Shown in pieces: positions 31,851 through 41,725 of a stretch of DNA of 64,000 bases. The stretch comes from an uncultured cyanobacterium. Lineage in GTDB: Bacteria; Cyanobacteriota; Cyanobacteriia; Cyanobacteriales; CAWCAG01. Numbering within the stretch: position 1 is the first letter of the stretch; each line of letters opens with the position of its first letter. The DNA is taken from NCBI GenBank assembly GCA_963793425.1, contig CAWCAG010000009.1, forward strand, positions 128,001 through 192,000. The letters run 5' to 3'. The translations under genes and the position numbers were made by a program. The notes beneath the pieces are model-generated. The model worked only from the letters and a program-made list of their open reading frames with translations. It was not told where the DNA came from and made no database searches.

Positions 31851-34076
31851 TCAATTGATAAACATCATTGCTGCTAGTTGATTTAACTTAGCTACTTGGG
31901 CTACTTTGTTTTGCCATTCTTCTTGGACTCTTTTACGATTAGCTAATTCTTTGAATTCTGGCCAAACCTGAATGCGTATTTCTTCGTCGCTTAAAAAGTC
32001 TTCCCACTCTCCGCGAATGTTTTTAGCATAAAGAATACGATCAGCAAATTCTTCTACCATGTAATAACGAACTTGGCTAGGAGCTTTTAACCAATTTTCT
32101 AAGGTTTGGCGACATTGGCTAATAACTTGTTGGTGTAATTTTTCTAAGTTAGAACGTACTTCGCTAGGGTTGGTTGGTTCAGTTAAAACTTGATTTTCTT
32201 CTTGATTAAGAGCATTTTCAATTGAGTTTAAAGGTTGGTCAACATCGGCTTGTAAATTGTCGCTAAGATGTTTACGAATAAAGCGTAATAAAGAACTGCT
32301 GTAAGAGAATTCAAAGTCGCCTAGGGTACGAAAGCCTAACTCTAATTGATTCTGTTTCTGCGCCAGCAAATCCGCCATTTCTTGGAGAAACTCTGTCCCT
32401 CGGCTAGGAATCAATTCTCCTAAACGTCCTTGCTTAATTAATACTTCTGCCACAGCAGTTTTCATCTTCTCGACAGATTTATTTAAACCTTTGTCAAGGA
32501 GGAGGAAGTGTTGAGATAAATGAATGCGTAATTCTACAATATAAATACGATAAACCGCTGCATAGGACTCTTTAAACTCTAAAGTACGGCTGCGATCGCA
32601 GATTTCTTGGTCTTGAGGAATACCTGAATCTTTAAGGCAGTTTTCCAAAGCATTTTCGACTGCTGTTTGAAAATCAAAATCAATGTCTTCACTTTTCGCT
32701 TTAAGTTCGTTCCTTAAATCGACTAAACCGTTAACAACATCTTGTAAAAGTTGGTTAAACAAAACCCTAAACTGGCTAGATTCCCGACCATATTTAGCTA
32801 AGGCGGGGCGAACAGTAGCTAATTCCTGAGCAATTTTTTCTTGTAGTTCTATTAAACGAGTTTGGCACTCTCTGGCGTAACGTTTATCTATTTCGTTAAT
32901 ATTAACAGCCAGATAATCCAAGACTAAATCAAAAACTCGATTAGCATCTTTAGGTTCAGAACAATCAGCAATTTCGCAACGGACAACTTGAATAGTATCA
33001 ATATTTTGTTGTAGGGTTTGACAAGCTTTGAGGTTATTAGTTCTTTTACTATAATTGAGAACCATAAAAGAGCGATTTTCTAAGTTATTTAAAGCTTGGG
33101 TGGCCGTATCATAAAGTTGTGTATCTACAGGTTGCCATTGATAACGCATGGGGTCAGGGCGACGAATGAACAGAACAACATCAACCTCTTTTCCCAGAGT
33201 TTTTAGGATTAACTTTTCGTCCCCTAAACGGGAATCTCCCATCCCAGGAACATCAACCAAACTAACTTTACCAACATCAGGATTTTCAAAGCGACAAAAG
33301 ATGACTACTTCCCTAACTGCTAGATGTTTAAAAGTTGTTAGTTTATCTTGTCCATCTCGTTTTTGAATGACATAATCTGGTATTTCTTCTTGCTTAATAG
33401 CAAACTTTTGTGGTTCCCCTGGCTTAATTAAGTAGCGATATTTAGAGAGATTTTGGTGATAATCTTCCTTAAGATGCTTATACATCTTTTCTTTGGTGGC
33501 CCCAAGAGAAGGCGGTTCAATAAAAGTTTGACTAGCAAACTCATCTAAACTTTGGGGTTTATTAGCCAAACCTAACTCATCGTAATAAAGCCAAATAACT
33601 CCTGTTAAAAAAGACTCTTCAGAGTGGAGAGTAACTTCAGCAACAGTATCTCCTGGTTGATTTTCAATAGTACTGCGTACCGCCGTACAAGCCCCCCCTT
33701 CCAAAGCAGGAATCTCTTTATCGCTCAATCCGCTTAAACTTTTTAATAAAGTACTCTTACCCTGCCCCATCAAACCCACCACACCAATATTTAAAGTAGG
33801 ACGAGAAAAGCGTTCCCGTAGAGTATTTAACTTTTCTACTTCTGTTTGAATTTGTTGCAACAAAGGAGAAAAATCGCCTTTCGATAACTGTTCTTTTACC
33901 TCAACTTCTCCCACAGAATTGGTCAAATTTTGACGATAACTTTCCAATTCCCGAATTGCGGTATAAAGTTCCCGTAAGTGCATCTCTACCCACTGTATTT
34001 CCTCAGCTAAGGGTCTACGCTGAGCGATAATACTTTCGATACGTTCTGCTCTAGTATTAGTGTTAGTGGGGTTCAT
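31851..34076 (-). CDS. Dynamin-like GTPase
   Basis: N-terminal helical region, G1 GLMGQGKS, G2-like ACTAV, G3 DVPG, long helical C-terminus. Confidence 0.75.
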   Translation of the reverse strand: MNPTNTNTRAERIESIIAQRRPLAEEIQWVEMHLRELYTAIRELESYRQNLTNSVGEVEVKEQLSKGDFSPLLQQIQTEVEKLNTLRERFSRPTLNIGVVGLMGQGKSTLLKSLSGLSDKEIPALEGGACTAVRSTIENQPGDTVAEVTLHSEESFLTGVIWLYYDELGLANKPQSLDEFASQTFIEPPSLGATKEKMYKHLKEDYHQNLSKYRYLIKPGEPQKFAIKQEEIPDYVIQKRDGQDKLTTFKHLAVREVVIFCRFENPDVGKVSLVDVPGMGDSRLGDEKLILKTLGKEVDVVLFIRRPDPMRYQWQPVDTQLYDTATQALNNLENRSFMVLNYSKRTNNLKACQTLQQNIDTIQVVRCEIADCSEPKDANRVFDLVLDYLAVNINEIDKRYARECQTRLIELQEKIAQELATVRPALAKYGRESSQFRVLFNQLLQDVVNGLVDLRNELKAKSEDIDFDFQTAVENALENCLKDSGIPQDQEICDRSRTLEFKESYAAVYRIYIVELRIHLSQHFLLLDKGLNKSVEKMKTAVAEVLIKQGRLGELIPSRGTEFLQEMADLLAQKQNQLELGFRTLGDFEFSYSSSLLRFIRKHLSDNLQADVDQPLNSIENALNQEENQVLTEPTNPSEVRSNLEKLHQQVISQCRQTLENWLKAPSQVRYYMVEEFADRILYAKNIRGEWEDFLSDEEIRIQVWPEFKELANRKRVQEEWQNKVAQVAKLNQLAAMMFIN

Positions 34077-34183
34077 TTACTCAAAATCTACTTAAAAAGG
34101 GAACAGTAAAGTAAATATGTTTGCGAAAAAGGGCATACTTAAGGTAAAGTTTGCAAGCAAAGAAAAAGATTGCTTTTTTGAGT

Positions 34184-35143
34184 ATGCCAGTGGATTTTAC
34201 AGTAGCTATACCTACTTATAACGGAGCAAAGCGTTTACCAGAAGTATTAGAACGACTGCAACAACAACTTAACCCAGATAAACTTAACTGGGAAATTGTA
34301 GTTATAGATAACAATAGCACTGATAATACTGCCCAAGTTATTCAAGCATATCAAGCTGATTGGCAACAGTCCTATCCTTTAAAATATTATCTAGAAACTC
34401 AACAAGGCGCTCATTTTGCCCGTACCCTTGCCCTTCAAGTAGCTTCTGCCCCTTTAGTGGGTTTTCTTGATGATGATAACTTACCAGAAACAAATTGGCT
34501 GACTCAAGCTGATCACTTTGCCAAAAACCACCCCCAAGCAGGGGCTTATGGTGGCAAAATTCATCCCCTTTATGAAGTTAAACCTCCTGCTAATTTCCAC
34601 CGCATCGCTTGTTTATTAGCCATCATTGATCGTGGCTCTCAACCATTGTTATATAACCCTCAAAACCGACTCTTGCCCCCTTCGGCAGGCTTGGTAGTAC
34701 GCAAACAAGCTTGGCAAGAATGTGCCCCTCCTCAACAAATTTTAGGAGGCAGAAATAAAGATAGTATGCTTACCAGCGAAGATTTAGAAATGCAATCTTA
34801 CCTACAAAAAGGAGGTTGGGAAATTTGGTACAATCCAGAGATGGTCATCAACCATAAAATTCCGGCTTGGCGCTTAGAAAAAGACTATTTAATTAATTTG
34901 GTGCGGGGTATTGGTTTAAGTCGCTACGTTACTCGCACAGTTACTTATAAACCTTGGCAAAAACCATTAATTTCTTTGGTTTATTTAATTAATGACTTGC
35001 GTAAGATTATGCTTCATTTACTTAAGTACAAATTCCAAGTCAAAACCGATCTTGTAGCTGCTTGTGAGATGGAATTGTTTGTAAGTAGTTTAAGTAGTCC
35101 TTTTTATTTATGGAAAAATGGTTATCTTAAATCAAGACAGTGA
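34184..35143 (+). CDS. hpsE: GT2 glycosyltransferase, HpsE-like (hormogonium polysaccharide family)
   Basis: DFTVAIPTYNG, DNNSTD, FLDDD, SEDLE and EIWYNP..HKIP..RL. Confidence 0.75.
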   Translation: MPVDFTVAIPTYNGAKRLPEVLERLQQQLNPDKLNWEIVVIDNNSTDNTAQVIQAYQADWQQSYPLKYYLETQQGAHFARTLALQVASAPLVGFLDDDNLPETNWLTQADHFAKNHPQAGAYGGKIHPLYEVKPPANFHRIACLLAIIDRGSQPLLYNPQNRLLPPSAGLVVRKQAWQECAPPQQILGGRNKDSMLTSEDLEMQSYLQKGGWEIWYNPEMVINHKIPAWRLEKDYLINLVRGIGLSRYVTRTVTYKPWQKPLISLVYLINDLRKIMLHLLKYKFQVKTDLVAACEMELFVSSLSSPFYLWKNGYLKSRQ

Positions 35144-35189: not shown

Positions 35190-36077
35190 TCATTTGCTGT
35201 ACTGCTGCTGAAGAAATTGAGTAAATAACTGAACCTTAGTAGAAAGGTGGCGATTGAGAGGATAAATCACACATAGAGTTAGTTCTGGTGGTTGATAGTT
35301 GGGTAAAATGATTTGTAATTTTCCTTGTTCTAACTCTTCTTTGACAATAAAAGTTGGTAACATCACAATGCCTAAACCTGTTACTGCGGCATTCCTCAAA
35401 ACTTCCCCATTATTGCAACAAAAAATCCCATCAATGGAGACTTGCTCTTCTTTTTTTTCACTAATTAATTGCCACTGACAACCTGTCGTTAAATAGCCAT
35501 AGTGCAAACAAGAATGATTTTTTAATTGCTGAGGAAGACTGGGCATTCCTTTTACTTTTAAATAACTAGGTGCAGCACAAATAACACGAGGAAGTACCGT
35601 AAGATGGTGAGCTACTAAACTAGGAGATTCTAGGGGCAAACCAATACGAATAACCAAATCGTAGCCTTCAGCAATGGGATCTACAAAACGATCTTCTAAA
35701 GTTAGTTGAATTTTAATATCTGTATAGCGGTTCATAAATTCAGCTATTTTCGCACCTAAAGAAGAAATGCCAAAAGACATGGGAGCATTAATTTTTAGTG
35801 TTCCCTTGGGTTCATTATGTTCTTGTGAGACTGCTAACTCTGCTTCTTCTATGCTGCTGAGAATCTCAATACAGCGTTGGTAAAAGGCTCGTCCATTATC
35901 TGTGGGTGTAACTTGACGGGTTGTACGATAGAGCAGTTGCACTCCTAAATGATTTTCTAAATTAATTACCAGCTTATTCACCGCAGAGCGAGATAGTTGC
36001 ATTTTCCGCGCCGCAGCAGCAAAGCCACCTTCTTCAACTACTTGGGTAAATGCTCGCATACTTTCAAACTTATCCAT
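35190..36077 (-). CDS. LysR-family regulator (CrgA/DmlR-like)
   Basis: HTH FAAAARKMQLSRSAV, LENHLGVQLLYRTTR and DLVIRIG. Confidence 0.93.
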   Translation of the reverse strand: MDKFESMRAFTQVVEEGGFAAAARKMQLSRSAVNKLVINLENHLGVQLLYRTTRQVTPTDNGRAFYQRCIEILSSIEEAELAVSQEHNEPKGTLKINAPMSFGISSLGAKIAEFMNRYTDIKIQLTLEDRFVDPIAEGYDLVIRIGLPLESPSLVAHHLTVLPRVICAAPSYLKVKGMPSLPQQLKNHSCLHYGYLTTGCQWQLISEKKEEQVSIDGIFCCNNGEVLRNAAVTGLGIVMLPTFIVKEELEQGKLQIILPNYQPPELTLCVIYPLNRHLSTKVQLFTQFLQQQYSK

Positions 36078-36192: not shown

Positions 36193-36894
36193 ATGATTAC
36201 TATTCGTCCTGCCGATGCAAGGGGTAATGCTAACTTTGGTTGGCTTGATAGCAAACATACTTTTTCCTTTGGTAATTATTACGATCCTCAGCAGATGGGG
36301 TTTGCCAGTCTGCGGGTTATTAATGAAGACAAAGTGCAACCAGCCAAAGGTTTTGGTACTCATAGCCACAAAGATATGGAAATAATCTCCTACGTTTTAG
36401 AAGGAGAGTTGGAACACAAAGATAGCATTGGTAACGGTTCGGTAATTCGCCCAGGGGATGTGCAACGGATGTCTGCTGGTACAGGGATTGCCCACAGTGA
36501 GTTTAATGCTTCTGCTACTGATCCGGTTCACTTTCTGCAAATTTGGATTATGCCAAATCAAGCAGGAATACAACCGAGTTATGAGCAAAAATACTTCCCT
36601 GTAGAAGAAAAACCAGGAAAGTTGATCCTGGTTGCTTCTCCTGATGGCAGGGACAATTCAGTAACGATTCATCAAGATGCTAATCTCTATATTGCTGCTT
36701 TGAACAACGGCGATCGCTTGAATCATAGCACTAACAGCAATAGATCATTGTGGCTACAAGTAGCTAGAGGTTCAGTAGAGATTAATGGTCAATTGCTTAA
36801 TAGTGGTGACGGTGCTGCCATAACCAAAGAAACAGATATTGCGATCGCCGCTACTAATGGTAATACTGAAATCCTACTGTTCGATTTAGCCTAA
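36193..36894 (+). CDS. Pirin family protein (YhhW-like)
   Basis: [34 protein letters not shown] and LQIW. Confidence 0.93.
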
Positions 36895-36937
36895 AACCCC
36901 AGCCCCCTAGCTCCCCAGCCCCCCACCTCCCTAAATA

Positions 36938-37813
36938 CTACTTACCCTTCTGAGGATTCTTCGCTTGCTCAATGGCAATTTCTTTCATGGCTTCAAAAGA
37001 ATTGCGGTTAGAAGTACCTTCAATAGCTTTCACAGCCAAATCTTGCACCTGTTTTAAAGCTGCATCCAGTTGTTTGCCTAAACTAACCAAACGTCCGGCT
37101 TGATTCTCTATTGTTTCTTCTAAAGCCTGCACTCGCAGTTGATAATTATGTCTTTCTCCTTCAATTTCTTTATTACGTAAATCGGACTTTATTCTTCCTT
37201 GGTAATTACCAATGTTACGTCCCTTTTCTTTACCATTCCTGATAGTTTTCTCTAACTCTTCTTGATGATTTTTAACCTCAAGTTCAACCTCCCCGTACCG
37301 TTTTTCTTGAGTTGCGATCGCCTCTTCCCTTTCTCGCCACTGGTTTTCTTGTTCTTGACTGCTTTCTGCTAATTCTTCTCTATTCTGTTTAGAATCAGTC
37401 TCGTAAACCTCTATTAATTCCTCAAAACTTTCTTCAGTAACTACTTCTATCTCATGCAATTCTTGTAACTGCTCTTTTTCTTGTTCAACTGTAGCCTGAA
37501 GCTTTTCTAAACTAGAAGCTTCAGCAATCAACTGTTCTGATAAATTACTAGCTGCCCCACCAAAACCAATTTGAATCAATTCTAAACTATTAATAGTTTT
37601 GTCGATGCCTTTTTGAGCATTATCAGCTTGTTTATTTTCCGGCTTGTCAATCCTTACTAAAGGAGGAGAAACTACTTTACCGTTAGTCTTATCTGCTTTA
37701 TCTTCATGTAACTGTTGTAACTCAGTTTCCAAGTTACTTTTCTCCTTATTCAATTCCTTAAAAGCAGACAATATTTCCGCTTTCGTATTTCTGGAACTCA
37801 CACGCTTAGCCAT
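36938..37813 (-). CDS. Coiled-coil protein B (probably with in-frame internal deletion)
   Basis: All-helical E/Q/K-rich protein, paralogous to the upstream gene; lacks about 70 aa present in the paralog. Confidence 0.7.
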   Translation of the reverse strand: MAKRVSSRNTKAEILSAFKELNKEKSNLETELQQLHEDKADKTNGKVVSPPLVRIDKPENKQADNAQKGIDKTINSLELIQIGFGGAASNLSEQLIAEASSLEKLQATVEQEKEQLQELHEIEVVTEESFEELIEVYETDSKQNREELAESSQEQENQWREREEAIATQEKRYGEVELEVKNHQEELEKTIRNGKEKGRNIGNYQGRIKSDLRNKEIEGERHNYQLRVQALEETIENQAGRLVSLGKQLDAALKQVQDLAVKAIEGTSNRNSFEAMKEIAIEQAKNPQKGK

Positions 37814-37833
37814 TATTTTCTCCTAGTTATTTG

Positions 37834-38677
37834 CTAATTATTAGAACTCTGAAAAGCTCTCATCGCCAACTGTTGCGCTTGATTGGTCGCAGCTTGTAAT
37901 TGTGCTGTCAACTCGTTCATTTGCTCAGCTTGTCGTTCAATACTTGCTTGCAAAGACTCTACTTTCAACTCATAACCTTGCTTAGCTGCCTCCCATTCTT
38001 TCTCAATCAAATTTGCCTTCACATTGGCTTCCCGTGTCGCTTCTTTTATGGCATCTTCCTTAGCTTTACTATAAGCTTGCTGTAATTCTTCAGCAAAAGT
38101 AGCAACCTTTTGTTCATTCTCAACAAACTCAGCCCGGTTATCAGTAAGATATTCTTCCCTTTCCTGCCAAGCTTTTTCTTTTTGTTGATTCTTTTGAGCA
38201 ATTTCTCTTTCCTGCTGCCGTTTTAACTCTTCATACTCATCCATCTCTATTTGGCGATCGCGCTCTATTTCATATTCATATTTTTCCCTTTCTTGTTGAC
38301 GAAATTTCGTTAACAATTCCTCCTCCATAGCTATTTTTTCAGTAAATTCTTGTTGTTCTTTTAACCAAGCTTTACGAACTTGAGCCATCTCCTTTTCTAA
38401 AGCTTCTTCTTGTTGCGCTGTCTTACTCTCCAACGCTGCCATTTTTTCTTGGTGTTCTTGCCGTAAAATATAAAGAGCATCAGCTACCAAACGTACTTTA
38501 CGAAGTTGTTCTAAATATTGGCTTTCAACAACAATTGCCTTACGTAAATCGTTTAATCTAATTGACTCTTCCTTCCTTAGTTGCTACCTTAGATTCTGTA
38601 TTTTTCTGTTCAGTAAAAAGCCGATTAAAAGCAGCCAGAATTTGCTCTTTACTGTCTTTGCGTACAGCTTGATTCAT
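37834..38677 (-). pseudogene. Coiled-coil protein A, split by internal deletion plus frameshift
   Basis: ATG at 38677 reads MNQAVRKDSKEQILAAF...VATKE. A +1 shift near 38570 gives EESIRLNDLRKAIVVESQYLEQLRKVRL, which runs into ORF 37834..38490. Confidence 0.8.
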
Positions 38678-38739
38678 AACTTGTTTAACCATGAATGATA
38701 ACTGGGAGAAAAAGGTGTTATGCAGGGTGAACACCTGAA

Positions 38740-38798
38740 TTGATGTAAAAATCAACTTTGTTGCCACCAGCATAACCTCATGTTGAATTTTTCGTCAA
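38740..38798 (-). promoter_or_regulatory. Sigma70-like promoter for the coiled-coil genes with two candidate operators
   Basis: Minus strand TTGACG-N18-TATGCT; TTGA-N8-TCAA at 38740-38755 and 38783-38798. Confidence 0.6.
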
Positions 38799-38838
38799 GC
38801 TATTGTAAAATATTCCTAAGCTTCCCAAGGTTAAAACA

Positions 38839-39192
38839 GTGAATCAGAATTTCGGTCAAATAATCCGCCAAGCCAGAAAGGACAAAGGCTATAGCCAAAG
38901 AGACTTAGCTAAGTTAGTTAAGCTAGACTTCACCTACTTATCTAAGCTAGAGAACAACCGTGCCGACTATCCCCCCAAAGAGGAAGTTATCCGTTCCTTA
39001 GCAGGGCAACTAGACTTAGATGCAGAGGAATTAATCTATCTTGCTGGCAGGGTTCCCCACGGTGAAGAAGACTTTCTCAAGGAAAACTACAAAGCAATGC
39101 CGTCTTTGTTCCGCAGAATGAAAGAAAATCCTGAGTTTGCACAGAAAGTGTTTCAAGAAGCAACCCAGGAGAATGATGGGGTGAAGAGATAA
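38839..39192 (+). CDS. XRE-family HTH transcriptional regulator
   Basis: FGQIIRQARKDKGYSQRDLA..TYLSKLEN. Confidence 0.92.
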   Translation: MNQNFGQIIRQARKDKGYSQRDLAKLVKLDFTYLSKLENNRADYPPKEEVIRSLAGQLDLDAEELIYLAGRVPHGEEDFLKENYKAMPSLFRRMKENPEFAQKVFQEATQENDGVKR

Positions 39193-39201
39193 TGAATTTC
39201 G

Positions 39202-39240
39202 TAGCAACTAGCAACTAGCAACTAGCCATTAGCAATTAGC
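39202..39240 (+). repeat. Heptamer tandem repeat (TAGCAAC)n
   Basis: TAGCAAC TAGCAAC TAGCAAC TAGCCAT TAGCAAT TAGC. Confidence 0.8.
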
Positions 39241-39277
39241 TTTTACCCCTTAAAAACGAAAGGGTATTAACATACCA

Positions 39278-39580
39278 GTGCAACCCCTCATTTGCCGCAA
39301 TGATAGCGAATCTCAAGGCAGAGAATGGCAAGCCCAATATTTTGCTAGTTGCTTACTTATGCCTCAGTATATCTTAGTTAAGATGCAAGAAGATAAAGAC
39401 TTAACGAAGTGGAGTCATCTTTATGAAATAGCTGAACAATTAGGGGTAACTATTTCCAATTTAACTCATCGCTTAAAAGATTTGGATTGGATTGAAATTG
39501 CTGAAGGTTCTAAACAGATTAAGTTAGGAGAAAAAAGGCCAACAAGACAGCTTTATGGGCGATCGCCCATGAGCAAATAA
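39278..39580 (+). pseudogene. ImmA/IrrE-family metallopeptidase, C-terminal remnant
   Basis: EWQAQYFASCLLMP motif and C-terminal HTH (IAEQLGVTISNL); no HExxH in the upstream sequence. Confidence 0.8.
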
Positions 39581-39742: not shown

Positions 39743-41725
39743 TTACTGAAACCCTCTTGTATTAATTTCTTGCAAATGCTCACCAGGGTTTAACCCATTA
39801 GAAAAGGTACTATTACTTGGGGTTGTTGTTGCTGGAGAGAGAAAATAATTAAGATTACCAGACCTCAATTGCTGCAATTCTGCTTTCTGTTCTGCCCTTT
39901 GTTTTTGTTGTTCTTTTTCCACATACTCCACAATCTTTCTCATCGCAATTTGACCAGTTTCAGTATGGAGAGGGACTTTTTCTAAATAATGTATTGCTTC
40001 AGTAAAGTCACCTTCTTCTGCTAAATCGTAAGCTTTTTGCAAGAAAAAATCAGCTCGGATACGTTGCTTTTGACGATATTCCTCTAACTTTGGTTGTACC
40101 CTTGCTCCCACAGCACTATCAGCAGGTATCTTTTCTAAATAAGTGAGGGCAGCAGTAAACTCTTTTTCTTTTGCTAACTCAAAAGCTTTAGCCAATAATT
40201 CTTCGGCATTAGTTTCTAAATTAACTTCTGCTTCTTCTACTAAAGGGGCAAGTTTTTCTTGCCAAAAAGGGCTAGGAGGAGCTTTTTGCGCTTCTGCTGT
40301 AACTCGCTGCCATTTTTCTTGTTCAAAAGCTGTTTTTGCTGCTTCATACTGTACTTTTGCTGAGCGCCATTCCTGCTGCCATTTAGCTACTCTGGTTTGA
40401 GATTTTTTGTAAACAGAACTTTCTTGATTAACAGATTCTGCTAAAGAAATAGCTTCAGTTAAATCTCCGTTGCCATAGGCTTGTTCTGCTTCCCATAAAA
40501 CATCAACTCCAGAATCAGCAAGATTAGTATTAAATAAATAATGAACCCCAAAAGCGATGGCTAAAGCATTCACCGCTGCCATACCAACCCCTAAACTAGT
40601 AAGGACGGGGAAGAGTTTAAAAAGGTCAAGAAAACCAGAATCTAATAATTTAATGCTGTTATCGGTAAGTTCTGGCCAAGAAAGTTTATTATCTTCCTTT
40701 TGAGGCTTTTCCTGTAAGCTTGGTTCGTTTAATAATTCCTCTTCAAAAATAGTTTCTTCCGTAATTAAAAGCTGTTCATCAGGACGATGACCAGGAAAAA
40801 GCACGAATTGAGGTAAGTCTAACTTACATAAGGGTTCTAAGGCTGCAATAACCTCTTGGGCTGACTGATAGCGCTGTTGGGTATCATAACAAGTCATTCT
40901 GTCGATAATGGCAGCCAATTGGTTACTAAAACCAAGTTCAATAGCATTATCTCGACATAAATGTCGCCAACTAATTTTACCCGTTTCTAAGTTAAGTTGT
41001 AATCTAGCTGGATCTAAGCCAGTTAAAGCTTGAATAGCGATGCTACCTACAGAATAAATATCACTATTAGCCTGGGGCTTGCCTATTAATTGTTCTGGAG
41101 CAATGTAACCTAAAGGACTAACTGCTACTGTAGTTTTAAAAGGAATAGTATTAAAAGACTGTTCTGGTTGAGAAATATCGATTAATTGAGCAGCACCAAA
41201 ATCAATCAGAACTAACTTTCCATCCTGAGAACGTCGAATCAAATTGTTCGGTTTAATGTCACAATGAACAACCCCCTGATTATGAATAAAATCTAAAATA
41301 TTTAATAGGTTATGAAGCAAATTCAACACCTGACCATCACAACCCCAACCACCGCAATATTCCCTTAAAGGTAAATAAGCATCAAGGGGTTGACCAGCTA
41401 TTAATTCTTGGATTAAATAAAAACCTTGACTCTCTTCAAAAAAGGCTAAAAGTTGGGGAACTTGTTCATAACCTTTTAGCTTTTGCAAAACTTCTACTTC
41501 TTTGTAGAATAAGCGTCTACCCGTTCTTAATAAACTAGGATATTCTCCGACAGTTTTCCGATGCTTAACTACACATTTTCTGCTTGGGGAAGTGGTAATA
41601 TCTTCAGCAATGTAAGTTTGTCCAAAAGCACCAGCGCTAAGAACTTTGACAATTTTATAACGCTCTTTTAATAATTGACCTAATAAGGGATAATTAACTC
41701 TATCAGCTAGCAATTTCTTTCCCAA
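39743..41725 (-). CDS. Hanks-type Ser/Thr protein kinase with TM helix and helical extracytoplasmic domain
   Basis: LSAGAFGQTY, CVVK, HCDIKPNN, LIDFGA, GYIAPEQ and SDIYSVG. Confidence 0.9.
   Translation of the reverse strand: MGKKLLADRVNYPLLGQLLKERYKIVKVLSAGAFGQTYIAEDITTSPSRKCVVKHRKTVGEYPSLLRTGRRLFYKEVEVLQKLKGYEQVPQLLAFFEESQGFYLIQELIAGQPLDAYLPLREYCGGWGCDGQVLNLLHNLLNILDFIHNQGVVHCDIKPNNLIRRSQDGKLVLIDFGAAQLIDISQPEQSFNTIPFKTTVAVSPLGYIAPEQLIGKPQANSDIYSVGSIAIQALTGLDPARLQLNLETGKISWRHLCRDNAIELGFSNQLAAIIDRMTCYDTQQRYQSAQEVIAALEPLCKLDLPQFVLFPGHRPDEQLLITEETIFEEELLNEPSLQEKPQKEDNKLSWPELTDNSIKLLDSGFLDLFKLFPVLTSLGVGMAAVNALAIAFGVHYLFNTNLADSGVDVLWEAEQAYGNGDLTEAISLAESVNQESSVYKKSQTRVAKWQQEWRSAKVQYEAAKTAFEQEKWQRVTAEAQKAPPSPFWQEKLAPLVEEAEVNLETNAEELLAKAFELAKEKEFTAALTYLEKIPADSAVGARVQPKLEEYRQKQRIRADFFLQKAYDLAEEGDFTEAIHYLEKVPLHTETGQIAMRKIVEYVEKEQQKQRAEQKAELQQLRSGNLNYFLSPATTTPSNSTFSNGLNPGEHLQEINTRGFQ

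Follow-up and report, generated by a model that had tools for sequence, protein, structure and literature searches.

Decay in one copy of a module, conserved among cyanobacteria, in which an XRE repressor and an M78 peptidase lie divergently beside a pair of coiled-coil genes

The locus described here lies in a 64,000-nucleotide stretch of contig CAWCAG010000009.1 (assembly GCA_963793425.1) from an uncultured cyanobacterium, hereafter the window. It comprises a gene for an XRE-type helix-turn-helix (HTH) protein, followed by the remnant of an M78 peptidase gene, and is arranged head-to-head with two co-oriented genes for paralogous, all-helical proteins, which we term A and B (Table 1). All open reading frames (ORFs) and peptides quoted in the original prediction, made from the letters of the window, were found at the positions given there, and the arrangement it described is borne out by the ORFs, by Pfam matches and by the paralogy of A and B. 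The XRE protein matches HTH_19 (E 4.3e-12) and HTH_3 (E 8.2e-11), and a conserved C-terminal segment of about 45 residues follows its HTH domain; the peptidase remnant aligns with the Peptidase_M78 model, which has 123 positions, over positions 71-123 alone (E 1.2e-5).

Table 1. Genes, operators and predicted promoters of the locus, in window coordinates
Feature	Position	Strand	Description
Gene B	36938-37813	-	291 aa; carries RNTKAEILSAF and QVQDLAVKAI; coiled-coil, open frame with in-frame internal deletion
Gene A, C-terminal part	37834-38490, open back to 38583	-	249 codons after a stop; carries QAQQLAMRAF
Gene A, N-terminal part	38558-38677	-	Frame differs from C-terminal part; begins MNQAVRKDSKEQILAAF; carries KDSKEQILAAF; true start M at 38677, 39 codons, then stop at 38558
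Operator O2	38739-38756	.	ATTGATGTAAAAATCAAC; about +6 to +23 of predicted A-B promoter
Predicted A-B promoter	38769-38798	-	TTGACG, 18-nt spacer, TATGCT; consensus match only
Operator O1	38782-38799	.	GTTGAATTTTTCGTCAAG; its two half-sites are the two -35 hexamers, one per divergent promoter
Predicted XRE promoter	38783-38811	+	TTGAAT, 17-nt spacer, TAAAAT; overlaps O1; consensus match only
XRE gene	38839-39192	+	HTH repressor, 117 aa, intact; HTH_3/HTH_19 over residues 6-70
Heptamer repeat TAGCAAC	39202-39240	.	5.6 copies, at junction of missing peptidase 5' part
Peptidase remnant (M78, ImmA/IrrE/CapP-like)	39278-39580	+	100 aa; contains EWQAQYFASCLLMP

Three of the four genes of this unit (peptidase, A and B) are damaged; the XRE gene and both operators are intact. 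When B is aligned to eight full-length homologs, a single 73-column gap opens after ...YETDSKQNRE, and DNA alignment with a locus from the same family (L106) places the absence of 69+60+90 = 219 nt near 37377-37413, amounting to an in-frame loss of about 73 codons relative to a family of 355-372 aa. The same comparison reveals a deletion of about 137 nt in gene A, at about 38565, which shifts the frame because its length is not a multiple of three; intact A relatives run on for some 45 codons past the window's stop, LQLDFG motif included. In the peptidase gene about 283 nt are absent relative to L106, so that the N-terminal two thirds are gone: the remnant keeps the last ~100 of 206-235 residues, with the Cys-Arg loop, the Glu ligand and the HTH-like domain, and starts after the HExxH motif, lacking this motif and the N-terminal domain. 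No second copy of any of the four genes was found in the window's genome, and neither A-B nor the peptidase was found in a genome of the same genus; a genome of the same family (G007) carries all four genes intact, together with two operators. Logan contigs from four metagenome runs of one study, which may be the window's own source and are not independent of it, show the same lesion structure, and in three of these runs a single contig spans 36900-39231 with no gaps and 10-11 substitutions. The lesions therefore do not stem from a one-off assembly slip. Contigs break at the TAGCAAC repeat, where summed contig depth is 338-1182 vs about 7-47 in other bins across the four runs. The earlier impression of a decayed copy with intact homologs elsewhere has thus been confirmed.

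With the peptidase dead and without a second copy, A frameshifted, B internally deleted and the repressor and its operators surviving, the window's unit is most likely locked off and eroding. It might instead be alive, with the shortened B still at work, as well as an A protein that arises through frameshifting or translation from an internal start, under control of XRE alone or of another protease. B retains an open frame of 291 codons with both conserved ends, preceded by a ribosome-binding-like AGGAGAA, and could still be made; the XRE gene and operators are intact; and one complete genome (G018) has XRE with two operators beside A-B and no peptidase ortholog. Three independent lesions within one 2.7-kb unit, the removal of the invariant LQLDFG region from A and the loss of the whole unit in the same-genus relative nevertheless make a functional copy very unlikely.

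The arrangement itself is widespread. A lies upstream of B in 77 of 80 related loci (two of the three loci without an A match have less than 0.5 kb upstream of B, and the third is fragmentary), and the C-terminal part of the window's A is 52-62% identical to the intact A proteins of these 77 loci, which measure 322-336 aa. XRE lies divergently upstream in 59 of the 80 loci and a full-length HEIGH peptidase of 206-235 aa is present in 54, so that homology search and gene-neighbourhood analysis find the predicted four-gene arrangement in 54-59 of 80. At E<=0.001, B has 1135 homologs and the A/B cargo family 2090 cluster representatives, for which there is no annotation; at least 495 genome matches to the module were obtained. 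Across 41 genomes of the order, A-B occurs with a peptidase ortholog in 16 and by itself in eight, the peptidase occurs alone in four, and neither is present in 13; A-B is single-copy in the 24 genomes that bear it. Co-occurrence with XRE/IrrE genes, on which the original prediction had staked its case, hence holds at most of the related loci but fails, as far as the peptidase is concerned, in eight of these 24 genomes. XRE and paired operators were absent within 5-6 kb at five of seven A-B loci fetched, all five from genomes without a peptidase ortholog; A-B therefore also exists outside this control, and its link to the regulators is frequent, not obligatory. The genes on either side change between loci, whereas the unit that they enclose is conserved and co-inherited. 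We know of no earlier study of this four-gene unit, widespread as it is in cyanobacteria.

An 18-bp palindrome, TTGA-N8-TCAA or in fuller form (G/C)TTGA-N8-TCAA(C), is found two to four times near the XRE start in 54 of the 59 XRE-bearing loci, counting strict TTGA-N8-TCAA and requiring at least two sites within -110 to +250 of that start. Strict sites number 152 in 21,299 nt near XRE vs 63 in 684,384 nt elsewhere in the same loci, a density about 78-fold higher. The positions of O1 and O2 are conserved in related loci, and the two sites are the best and second-best position weight matrix (PWM) matches in the whole 5.28-Mb genome of the window, at 26.2 and 22.1 bits respectively; the third-ranked match sits inside an ORF. 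Between them they extend over the -35 boxes and also over the transcription start of the predicted A-B promoter. Promoter consensus matches in the region are not above chance (4 vs 5.8 in shuffles), and the A-B promoter is placed in the same way with respect to the operators in those related loci that were read, where the first site opens with a TTGAC -35-like hexamer and is followed by a -10-like box and then by the second site. Based on this sequence pattern, we infer that XRE binds the palindrome; the overlap of the XRE promoter with O1 would then imply autoregulation. Among eight loci without XRE that have at least 3.9 kb upstream of A, seven carry the palindrome within 300 nt of A, and two of five genomes with such XRE-less loci harbor an unlinked XRE-peptidase operon, with XRE 69-71% identical. 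The recurrent arrangement, the conserved operator on the A-B promoter and the retention of this operator upstream of A-B even where XRE and peptidase have moved elsewhere support the proposal that the XRE/M78 pair acts as a switch for the divergent coiled-coil pair. None of the RNA runs searched for the locus holds it.

The regulators resemble those of the CapH/CapP and DdrO/IrrE systems. Compared with 22 orthologs, the window's XRE protein is 57-76% identical and departs from none of the 31 invariant columns, L90, R93 and P98 of an LFRR-ENP stretch among them; within the LFRR of its C-terminal helix, L90 and R93 are invariant, R92 is kept in at least 90%, and 3 of 23 sequences have L instead of F91. 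The XRE ortholog of locus L004 matches the PADLOC capH model (E 9.1e-11, residues 1-105), and the module carries an XRE-type HTH repressor of the CapH kind, which may oligomerize through its C-terminal segment. CapP is reported to cut CapH between F82 and R83, in the first helix of CapH's C-terminal domain (10.1101/2022.04.27.489752). The peptidase of the intact relatives is an M78 zinc peptidase with HExxH and a Glu ligand, and matches PADLOC capP with E 1e-16 (profile positions 5-152 of 242). In its sequence H96, E97 and H100 hardly vary, whereas C130, R131 and E140 are invariant, a layout like that described for HExxH, cysteine-switch loop and Glu ligand in CapP. Cys130-Arg131 sit in a loop of variable length at the place that corresponds to the switch loop, which many but not all CapP proteins possess, and mark it as a candidate cysteine switch; the peptidase of L004 contains five Cys altogether. 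Foldseek searches with the AlphaFold2 (AF2) model of the peptidase (pLDDT 86.6) return CapP 7t5t as best match (E 3.1e-5), followed by PprI 8sln and IrrE 3dti. The peptidase has no GAF domain: the proteins end about 25-40 residues after the HTH-like domain, and past residue 192 the AF2 model holds only two short strands and one short helix. Single-stranded DNA is described to bind the groove between the peptidase and GAF domains in CapP and IrrE (10.64898/2026.05.16.725639), and with the GAF domain missing the damage-sensing step of CapP/IrrE is therefore not simply transferable to the module.

Proteins A and B are full-length paralogs. Their similarity goes far past what chance would give: they are 33% identical over 133 aa (BLASTP, E 7e-19), and when a profile of 44 intact A proteins is compared with one of 44 intact B proteins, the probability is 100% (E 5.4e-50, 333 columns). 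A tree of both resolves two groups of 44 and 44 (SH-aLRT 100) with parallel sub-groupings, which points to one old duplication followed by co-inheritance. In the AF2 model B forms helices at residues 11-37 and 65-118 and one long helix at 128-339 (about 212 residues), with pLDDT mostly above 80 in the latter, and E, K, Q, R, L or A make up 62% of residues in the A/B rod proteins. No known family and no enzymatic or membrane domain was found for A or B. Foldseek returned nothing significant for the helical rod, the best rows having E above 5 (among them vimentin 8rve, E 6.6). Both proteins match phrog_29668, a profile without annotated function for which coiled-coil composition may inflate the scores (A: E 8.7e-14, positions 2-337 of 357; B: E 5.3e-19, positions 3-344 of 357). 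An A-B heteromer, in line with the heterodimeric filament originally suggested, gains support that the modelling tool itself rates as weak: the predicted A+B complex scores 0.48 vs 0.00 for the best control, with contact agreement between runs of at least 79% and partner pLDDT of at least 76. In calibration, the mark was attained by 116 of the 157 solved complexes and by 2 of the 215 mismatched pairs; scores of 0.60 or under account for only 18 of the solved complexes that passed and for both mismatches. The controls are unrelated proteins, apparently not coiled coils, so any two long amphipathic helices may score. Nothing was found that points to the membrane-acting effector suggested as the other possibility.

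We interpret the gene order, paralogy, conservation, operators and their placement, lesions, and peptidase fold and motif content as the signature of a conserved, chromosomally inherited cyanobacterial repressor-peptidase switch acting on A-B, of which the window holds a degenerating copy, and assign this reading as a whole a probability of about 0.65. One operon would encode the XRE repressor (107-138 aa) and the M78 zinc peptidase (206-235 aa), back to back with a second one for A, of about 325 aa, and B, of about 365 aa, which are anciently duplicated, acidic and almost entirely helical. The repressor would occupy the palindromes, one lying across both divergent -35 hexamers and the second just downstream of the A-B transcription start, thereby keeping both A-B and its own gene off. 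Upon a stress signal the peptidase would become active, probably via release of an inhibitory cysteine loop, and, by analogy with CapP, may cut the C-terminal helix of the repressor at or near the conserved LF-RR, so that the cut repressor would leave the DNA and A-B would be expressed. A and B would then join through their ~210-residue helices in a heteromeric coiled coil, presumably a structural or scaffolding element. DNA damage is our leading guess for the trigger, at somewhat less than even odds, by analogy with related peptidases.

The trigger is the point at which the closest competing reading departs: the same architecture may answer to redox state, metals, desiccation or nutrients, with A-B as a general stress or morphology factor. 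The missing GAF domain, the invariant Cys130 and the five Cys of the L004 peptidase are compatible with this possibility, as are reports that redox signalling through zinc activates IrrE (PMC7907104) and that NsrX (Alr1976) of Anabaena PCC 7120, co-transcribed with the IrrE-like Alr1977, is tied to nitrogen-stress genes and binds in a metal-dependent manner (PMC12584617). NsrX is likened to the module's XRE by description only and not by sequence, however, and every characterised close structural relative of the peptidase (CapP, PprI/IrrE) responds to DNA damage, and we consider a different trigger possible, if on balance doubtful.

Phages offer two further explanations. In one, the module would be an anti-phage system whose A-B effector, for instance an abortive-infection scaffold, is switched on by a CapH/CapP-type regulator upon DNA damage by infection. 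The PADLOC matches of the regulators and the phrog_29668 matches of the cargo would suit it, and operons for CBASS, DISARM and other putative defence functions have been described with CapH/CapP-like pairs upstream (10.1101/2022.04.27.489752); yet PADLOC models give no match for A and only JetC at E 0.013 for B, none above noise, and both proteins lack an enzymatic or membrane domain. The pair is moreover single-copy, present in 24 of 41 genomes of the order, and the A and B trees run parallel, as vertical inheritance predicts. Flanking genes do not suggest defence islands either: as a raw count, 11 of 120 flanking ORFs from 18 loci match PADLOC at E<=1e-8, mostly through generic domains and none recurrently, and the 48 nearest are mostly housekeeping genes (EPSP synthase, HflX, RsgA, adenylosuccinate synthetase, ribosomal L25). 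A defence role, entertained in the original prediction along with enrichment in defence islands, consequently appears unlikely. In the other explanation the locus would be a prophage or mobile-element remnant, with XRE and peptidase forming an ImmR/ImmA-type immunity switch and A and B phage structural proteins, such as scaffolding. Phages and conjugative transposons often carry XRE/COG2856 pairs (PMC8072749), many phage repressor and metalloprotease PHROGs match the XRE and peptidase proteins, and the cargo matches phrog_29668. Against this, 2.9 million viral contigs yielded no B relative (0 of 34 pattern matches confirmed), and neither did 50,697 phage records at E<=1e-3, where relaxing the limit to E<=10 brings up a lone match of 60 residues, in Bacillus phage G. 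The 48 flanking ORFs nearest the module, out of the 120 from 18 loci, include no integrase, transposase or phage structural family, and flanks change from locus to locus while the module stays conserved and co-inherited, all of which leaves a mobile origin extremely improbable.

Read as a chromosomal switch on A-B, the module shares much with CapH/CapP: a small repressor of the XRE HTH type with an M78 HExxH peptidase behind it, the two lying divergently upstream of the operon to be controlled (59 of 80 loci); its best PADLOC matches and best fold match, 7t5t; a loop containing Cys that separates HExxH from the Glu ligand, with an HTH-like domain following the peptidase domain; and a conserved F-R pair in the repressor's C-terminal helix, a candidate counterpart of the position at which CapH is cut. 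It differs in that its GAF-less peptidase has 206-235 aa vs the 288 aa described for E. coli CapP, in a cargo that is a coiled-coil pair of no known family instead of a recognised immune system, and in being chromosomal, single-copy and vertically inherited across cyanobacteria. The module palindrome appears to differ from the RDRM of DdrO/IrrE. As reported for DdrO/IrrE (PprI), where a COG2856/M78 peptidase inactivates an XRE repressor by cutting its C-terminal dimerisation domain (PMC8072749, PMC12828697), cleavage would be the step in the module, whose peptidase fold matches 8sln and 3dti and which is likewise chromosomal, not on a mobile element, and equipped with a palindromic operator. 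In Deinococcus, by contrast, the two genes are described as unlinked and the regulon as comprising some twenty DNA-repair genes (PMC8533742), whereas, among the top three PWM matches of the window's genome, the one genome scanned, the only strong operator sites are the two at the module, whose peptidase, unlike IrrE, lacks the GAF domain. ImmR/ImmA of ICEBs1 and phage-like elements, as described, also has an operon in which XRE is joined by an M78 anti-repressor peptidase that is short and GAF-less, and this operon diverges from the repressed genes (PMC8072749), but the 48 nearest ORFs around the module include no mobile-element genes and its cargo consists of two conserved cellular coiled-coil proteins. 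NsrX/Alr1977 of Anabaena sp. PCC 7120 similarly pairs an XRE regulator with a co-transcribed IrrE-domain Zn peptidase, NsrX binding its own promoter; compared by description only, it differs in its reported targets, which are nitrogen-stress and heterocyst genes, the portion of the report at hand making no mention of coiled-coil neighbours (PMC12584617).

The predicted long, uninterrupted helical rod of A/B recalls crescentin, FilP and cyanobacterial ZicK/ZacK, none of which, to our knowledge, is under a repressor-peptidase switch. A and B are adjacent paralogs that may co-assemble, in the manner described for ZicK/ZacK, a heteropolymer-forming pair of Anabaena (10.1101/553073). The likeness to intermediate-filament-like proteins rests on predicted helices, with no sequence relationship shown.

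Switches built from a repressor and a peptidase have been described in Deinococcus radiation resistance, in the induction of mobile elements and, recently, in bacterial immunity. To these three settings the module adds a fourth, conserved and chromosomal in cyanobacteria and with an unannotated cargo family. The window holds a relic only, and the value of the system lies in its intact relatives. An operator, a promoter layout, a candidate cleavage site and natural knock-outs, namely the window's decayed copy and lineages with A-B but without the regulators, are now defined, which opens the regulation to direct test. Little is understood of how cyanobacteria perceive DNA damage and respond to it, and their LexA is not known to act like the SOS repressor of the classical scheme; if these organisms had a second pathway for DNA damage, one based on a protease, this would be of real interest. 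A bolder and rather improbable extension is that the module is a vertically inherited chromosomal stress or damage switch of many cyanobacteria, of the DdrO/IrrE-CapH/CapP kind, with an inducible two-component A-B coiled-coil polymer as its dedicated output in place of a repair enzyme or suicide effector, a heteropolymer that would reorganise the cell (e.g. by nucleoid compaction or tethering, or by blocking division until repair), and with a GAF-less, cysteine-gated peptidase that would sense by an undescribed route. A phrog_29668 match is also present in Deinococcus radiodurans (E between 1e-10 and 1e-7), and the same cargo family could serve a Deinococcus response too.

The original prediction placed an XRE repressor gene and the remnant of an M78 (ImmA/IrrE) peptidase gene head-to-head with two paralogous all-helical genes, here A and B, and gene-neighbourhood analysis bears out a recurrent four-gene arrangement. 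Homologs of B at E ≤ 0.001 number 1135 among 3767 candidates; 116 of the best 119, excluding the window's own protein, are 355-384 aa long, and where named they are cyanobacterial entries labelled 'hypothetical protein' or 'myosin heavy chain'. Scanning one genome per species yielded at least 495 confirmed relatives, of which the best 80 loci were kept. Culturable strains named among the relatives include Lyngbya sp. PCC 8106, Lusitaniella coriacea LEGE 07167 and several Planktothrix PCC strains, and Rippkaea orientalis PCC 8801 appears among the B homologs. In 77 of these 80 loci B is immediately preceded by an A-type gene; the remaining three gave no A match, one being fragmentary and the other two offering less than 0.5 kb of sequence ahead of B. 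On the opposite strand, 59 loci have an upstream XRE ortholog (61-77% identical), and a peptidase of 206-235 aa follows it in 54 of the 80. The intact layout, exemplified by loci L004 and L065, comprises leftward peptidase and XRE genes and then rightward A (325-329 aa) and B (363-372 aa). We judge, with a probability of roughly 0.85, that both this module and the repressor-operator logic assigned to it are genuine.

A palindrome with an A-rich centre, (G/C)TTGA-N8-TCAA(C), recurs in the spacers between XRE and A of 25 adjacent-type loci. At least two strict TTGA-N8-TCAA sites fall between -110 and +250 of the XRE start in 54 of the 59 XRE-bearing loci (two sites in 19, three in 30 and four in 5), and the count there is 152 sites in 21,299 nt against 63 in the remaining 684,384 nt of the same loci, or approximately 7.1 versus 0.09 per kb. 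In adjacent-type loci the two sites are 36-44 nt apart; site 1 opens with a TTGAC hexamer, a TAnnnT box follows at promoter spacing, and site 2 lies after the box. The window carries two such palindromes, the putative operators O1 and O2, and the positions of its candidate promoters relative to O1 imply that the O1 half-sites would serve as both -35 hexamers. Because promoter hexamer matches in the region do not exceed chance (4, against 5.8 in shuffles), the promoter/operator argument rests on conservation of the layout. Coordinates for the window and for the B model are collected in the table.

Features of the window (nucleotide positions) and of the AlphaFold2 (AF2) model of B (residues)
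Feature	Position	Strand	Remarks
Dynamin-like GTPase	31851-34076		
Putative glycosyltransferase ORF	34151-35143		assigned by eye
Putative LysR-type regulator ORF	35190-36077		assigned by eye
Pirin-family protein	36193-36894		
B	36938-37813	-	open frame, 291 codons
A, rest of gene	38583-37834	-	different frame from N-terminal part
A, N-terminal part	ATG 38677 to stop 38558	-	39 codons, MNQAVRKDSKEQILAAF...
O2 (putative operator)	38739-38756		palindrome; approximately +6 to +23 of predicted A-B transcript
Candidate A-B promoter	38798-38769	-	TTGACG-18-TATGCT
O1 (putative operator)	38782-38799		palindrome
Candidate XRE promoter	38783-38811	+	TTGAAT-17-TAAAAT
XRE helix-turn-helix (HTH) gene	38839-39192	+	117 aa; Pfam HTH_19 E 4.3e-12, HTH_3 E 8.2e-11
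M78 peptidase remnant	39278-39580	+	100 codons; last 53 of 123 Peptidase_M78 positions only
Ser/Thr kinase	39743-41725		C-terminal TPR-like repeats
B, helix	residues 11-37		conserved TKAEIL.A(F/Y) motif
B, linker	residues 39-63		disordered
B, helix	residues 65-118		LQ.GFG.A.S.LSEQL motif
B, single helix	residues 128-339		

Scanning the window's 5.28-Mb genome with a weight matrix derived from 124 distinct sites ranked O1 first (26.2 bits) and O2 second (22.1 bits). The third-ranked site, TGATTGACTTAAAAATCAACTT (21.4 bits; C9:386901, outside the window), is within a 325-codon ORF and is probably a chance match, so the repressor appears, on this genome scan, to have no other strong target in the window's genome. 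Among the 21 loci lacking XRE, eight are sequenced for 3.9 kb or more ahead of A, and seven of those eight retain a palindrome within 300 nt of A. An unlinked XRE ortholog (69-71% identical), with a peptidase directly downstream and a weaker palindrome upstream, occurs in two of five such genomes; the other three are metagenome-assembled, and no unlinked XRE was found in them with this query. The putative regulatory link thus seems to outlast the unlinking of its genes, yet it is not universal.

Across 41 genomes of the window's order, A-B is present in 24 and a peptidase ortholog in 20 (both in 16, A-B alone in 8, peptidase alone in 4 and neither in 13). Seven A-B loci were fetched: one, from a genome of the same family (G007), bears the full intact module with two operators; in another, from a complete genome (G018), two operators accompany XRE and the peptidase is missing; the remaining five show neither XRE nor paired operators within the 5-6 kb retrieved. 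A genome of the same genus lacks both A-B and the peptidase. The picture is of A-B as an old pair, usually but not always under the XRE/peptidase switch, and of a unit in the process of loss in the window's lineage.

The window's own copy had been described as decayed, and comparison with intact related loci confirms this, locating three lesions; every peptide quoted in that description is present in the window. In B, alignment to relatives reveals 73 missing internal codons with the frame kept, corresponding to approximately 219 nt absent in a DNA alignment with the same-family locus L106. In A, comparison with L106 and intact relatives indicates that approximately 137 nt are absent near 38565, with loss of the LQLDFG region and a frame shift. 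The peptidase gene has lost everything upstream of its 'PLxCR' loop, including the HEIGH motif. The XRE gene is intact, retaining 31 of the 31 columns invariant among 23 aligned sequences; it starts 161 nt from the start of A, and 85 nt separate it from the peptidase remnant. None of the four genes has a further copy in the window's genome.

Because single contigs span 36900-39231 without gaps in each of three metagenome runs, the A and B lesions are real in the DNA of that population; the metagenome runs come from one study and may themselves be where the window came from. Among RNA data, no run holding the locus was listed. At the junction of the peptidase truncation (39202-39240) lie 5.6 TAGCAAC heptamers; in four metagenome runs this stretch has a depth tens of times above its flanks, and contigs break there. 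The TAGCAAC run is a dispersed short repeat located exactly at the truncation point. Just 3' of the B stop, at 36897-36931, a C-rich unit of 16 nt (CCCCAGCCCCCCACCT) is repeated 2.2 times. A contig of run X2 that appears to join 36925 to 39211, a possible deletion variant that would remove B, A and XRE, was discounted, as it has only 25 letters on one side.

The window's peptidase is dead and lacks a substitute; the repressor and its putative operators are whole. On the simplest reading, A-B was permanently repressed first and decayed afterwards, but the reverse order, in which the cargo was lost before the peptidase, is equally compatible with these lesions.

An extended form of the operon is seen in 34 loci of the Oscillatoriales type, in which the distance from XRE to A is 1.06-2.3 kb; their record titles name Microcoleus, Tychonema, Lyngbya, Planktothrix, Laspinema, Limnospira and relatives. 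Three or four operators, with spacings of 24 and 37 nt, remain beside XRE, and three co-oriented genes of 86, 234 and 152 aa (L031:3341-4887 in a representative locus) intervene between the operators and A, giving a five-gene operon. These genes are kept in 34, 32 and 32 of the 34 extended loci, respectively, and none is present in the window's genome. Their products have no match above noise in Pfam, PHROGs, NCBIfam or PADLOC, and a PDB sequence search with the 234-aa protein was empty.

Both regulators resemble known pairs of XRE repressor and M78 peptidase. In PADLOC the best match of the peptidase is capP (E 1e-16) and XRE matches capH (E 9.1e-11). The AF2 model of the peptidase (pLDDT 86.6, pTM 0.84) matches Thauera CapP (7t5t; E 3.1e-5, TM 0.52 on query), followed by Deinococcus PprI (8sln), IrrE (3dti) and then HTH-fused mycobacterial regulators. 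In the peptidase alignment H96, E97 and H100 are nearly invariant, C130-R131 is invariant within a variable loop, E140 is invariant, and an HTH-like segment reads GVTISNL..RL.DLGWI. According to the published account of CapP, its peptidase domain (H97/E98/H101) is followed by a cysteine-switch loop (C114), E128 and an HTH domain (10.64898/2026.05.16.725639), and the cyanobacterial peptidase has the same order of HExxH, Cys loop, Glu and HTH-like motifs. CapP continues into a GAF domain, described there as residues 182-288 (10.64898/2026.05.16.725639), whereas the cyanobacterial protein ends 25-40 residues past its HTH-like part and covers the capP profile only up to position 152 of 242. The same account places the ssDNA site of CapP and IrrE between the peptidase and GAF domains (10.64898/2026.05.16.725639), so a peptidase that lacks GAF must sense in a different way or with the help of a further partner.

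The C-terminal stretch of XRE is conserved as ...MP.LFRR..ENPEF..., and in CapH cleavage is reported to separate F82 from R83, within the first C-terminal-domain helix (10.1101/2022.04.27.489752). Given the conserved LFRR, cleavage between F91 and R92 (window numbering) is a reasonable prediction, no more. The intact module would constitute a self-contained derepression circuit of the CapH/CapP, DdrO/IrrE and ImmR/ImmA kind: the repressor would occupy two to four palindromes over a divergent promoter pair; a cysteine-gated zinc peptidase, encoded behind the repressor, would cleave its C-terminal helix and lift repression; and the output would be a long coiled-coil pair, joined in Oscillatoriales by three further proteins. 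We consider inactivation of the repressor through cleavage somewhat probable, and DNA damage as the trigger a more tentative proposition. The type of regulator is already known; what is new is the GAF-less Cys-loop peptidase, the operator and the cargo. In the open-access literature searched, neither the module nor the A/B family is described. Closest among cyanobacterial studies is work on NsrX/Alr1977 of Anabaena (PMC12584617), a pair of comparable description.

The paralogy of A and B, initially read from their termini, is upheld by BLASTP (33% identity, E 7e-19) and by comparison of profiles of intact relatives (probability 100%, E 5.4e-50, 333 columns). In a quick tree built from 44 sequences of each type, A and B split at SH-aLRT 100 and their sub-groupings run parallel, which indicates a single duplication predating the sampled lineages and co-inheritance since. 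Both proteins are acidic (pI approximately 5.0-5.2), E, K, Q, R, L or A make up 62% of the residues in each, and neither contains cysteine. The AF2 model of B has a mean pLDDT of 79; its C-terminal tail is modelled with low confidence, yet it shows the strongest conservation in the protein (QVQDLAVKAIEG.SN..SF.A.KE.A.EQAK), and A has no tail of this type.

The pair had also been proposed to form a heterodimer. In complex prediction the A-B pair scored 0.48 in three runs against 0.00 in three controls, with contact agreement of at least 79% and partner pLDDT of at least 76. At or below 0.60, 18 of 157 solved complexes passed, as did the only two mismatched pairs to pass at all, and the tool grades such a score as weak support. 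As the controls were unrelated proteins, a likeness shared by any two long helices may score. We regard co-assembly of A and B as about as likely as not.

The sole library family matched by A and B is phrog_29668, a phage protein family of unannotated function, which aligns over their full length (E 8.7e-14 for A, 5.3e-19 for B). In Pfam, NCBIfam and PADLOC nothing rose above noise (SlyX, SMC and JetC, with E above 1e-4). An exhaustive profile search returned 2090 cluster representatives at E ≤ 0.001, 388 of them at E ≤ 1e-30. For A, a PDB profile search found nothing below E 0.5; for B it matched coronavirus spike HR1 over approximately 45 residues (best E 1.9e-6), a match that we read as coiled-coil likeness without kinship and take to be heptad-repeat convergence. 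The HR1 matches fall on profile positions 76-120, the LQ.GFG.A.S.LSEQL helix (alignment with L004:5288-6379 as first row). Foldseek found nothing at E ≤ 0.001 for the B model, and the ESM Atlas listed no clusters but unnamed ones (two from cyanobacteria, one chiefly from Thermodesulfobacteriota), with no named cluster at ≥ 0.9. Among 14 control genomes, phrog_29668 matches that of Deinococcus radiodurans (E between 1e-10 and 1e-7) and no other at E ≤ 1e-5; the match is on neither plasmid MP1 (E ≤ 0.01) nor CP1 (E ≤ 1e-7). It may be a coiled-coil artefact or a real relative, which would then sit in the organism where IrrE/DdrO was discovered.

Enrichment of the module in defence islands had been put forward as a check. 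Flanking ORFs of 110 aa or more were taken from 18 loci, 120 in all, and 11 of them have any PADLOC match at E ≤ 1e-8; these are mostly partial or generic (methyltransferase-like, ABC ATPase, subtilase, caspase, helicase and Uma2-like candidates), and none recurs beside the module in the 18 loci. When the nearest 48 ORFs were scanned against Pfam, 37 had a family at E ≤ 1e-10, mostly housekeeping or cellular (EPSP synthase, aminotransferases, RsgA and HflX GTPases, phosphoglycerate dehydrogenase, adenylosuccinate synthetase, ribosomal protein L25, undecaprenyl-diphosphatase, M23 peptidases and pentapeptide-repeat proteins), and none an integrase, transposase or phage structural family. This content speaks against the module lying in a defence island or a prophage, although some enrichment may still be present. 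No relatives were found in viral contigs or in phage genomes or records, and a plasmid search gave one match, on a 1.2-Mb cyanobacterial replicon. The window's pirin and kinase genes and the ORF at 35190-36077 do not recur in the 80 related loci. A pentapeptide-repeat gene lies just 3' of B in four of the 18 loci (L014:7186-8151, L029:7329-9191, L039:7203-8630 and L008:7200-8159), a recurrence that may be due to chance, since this family is common in cyanobacteria.
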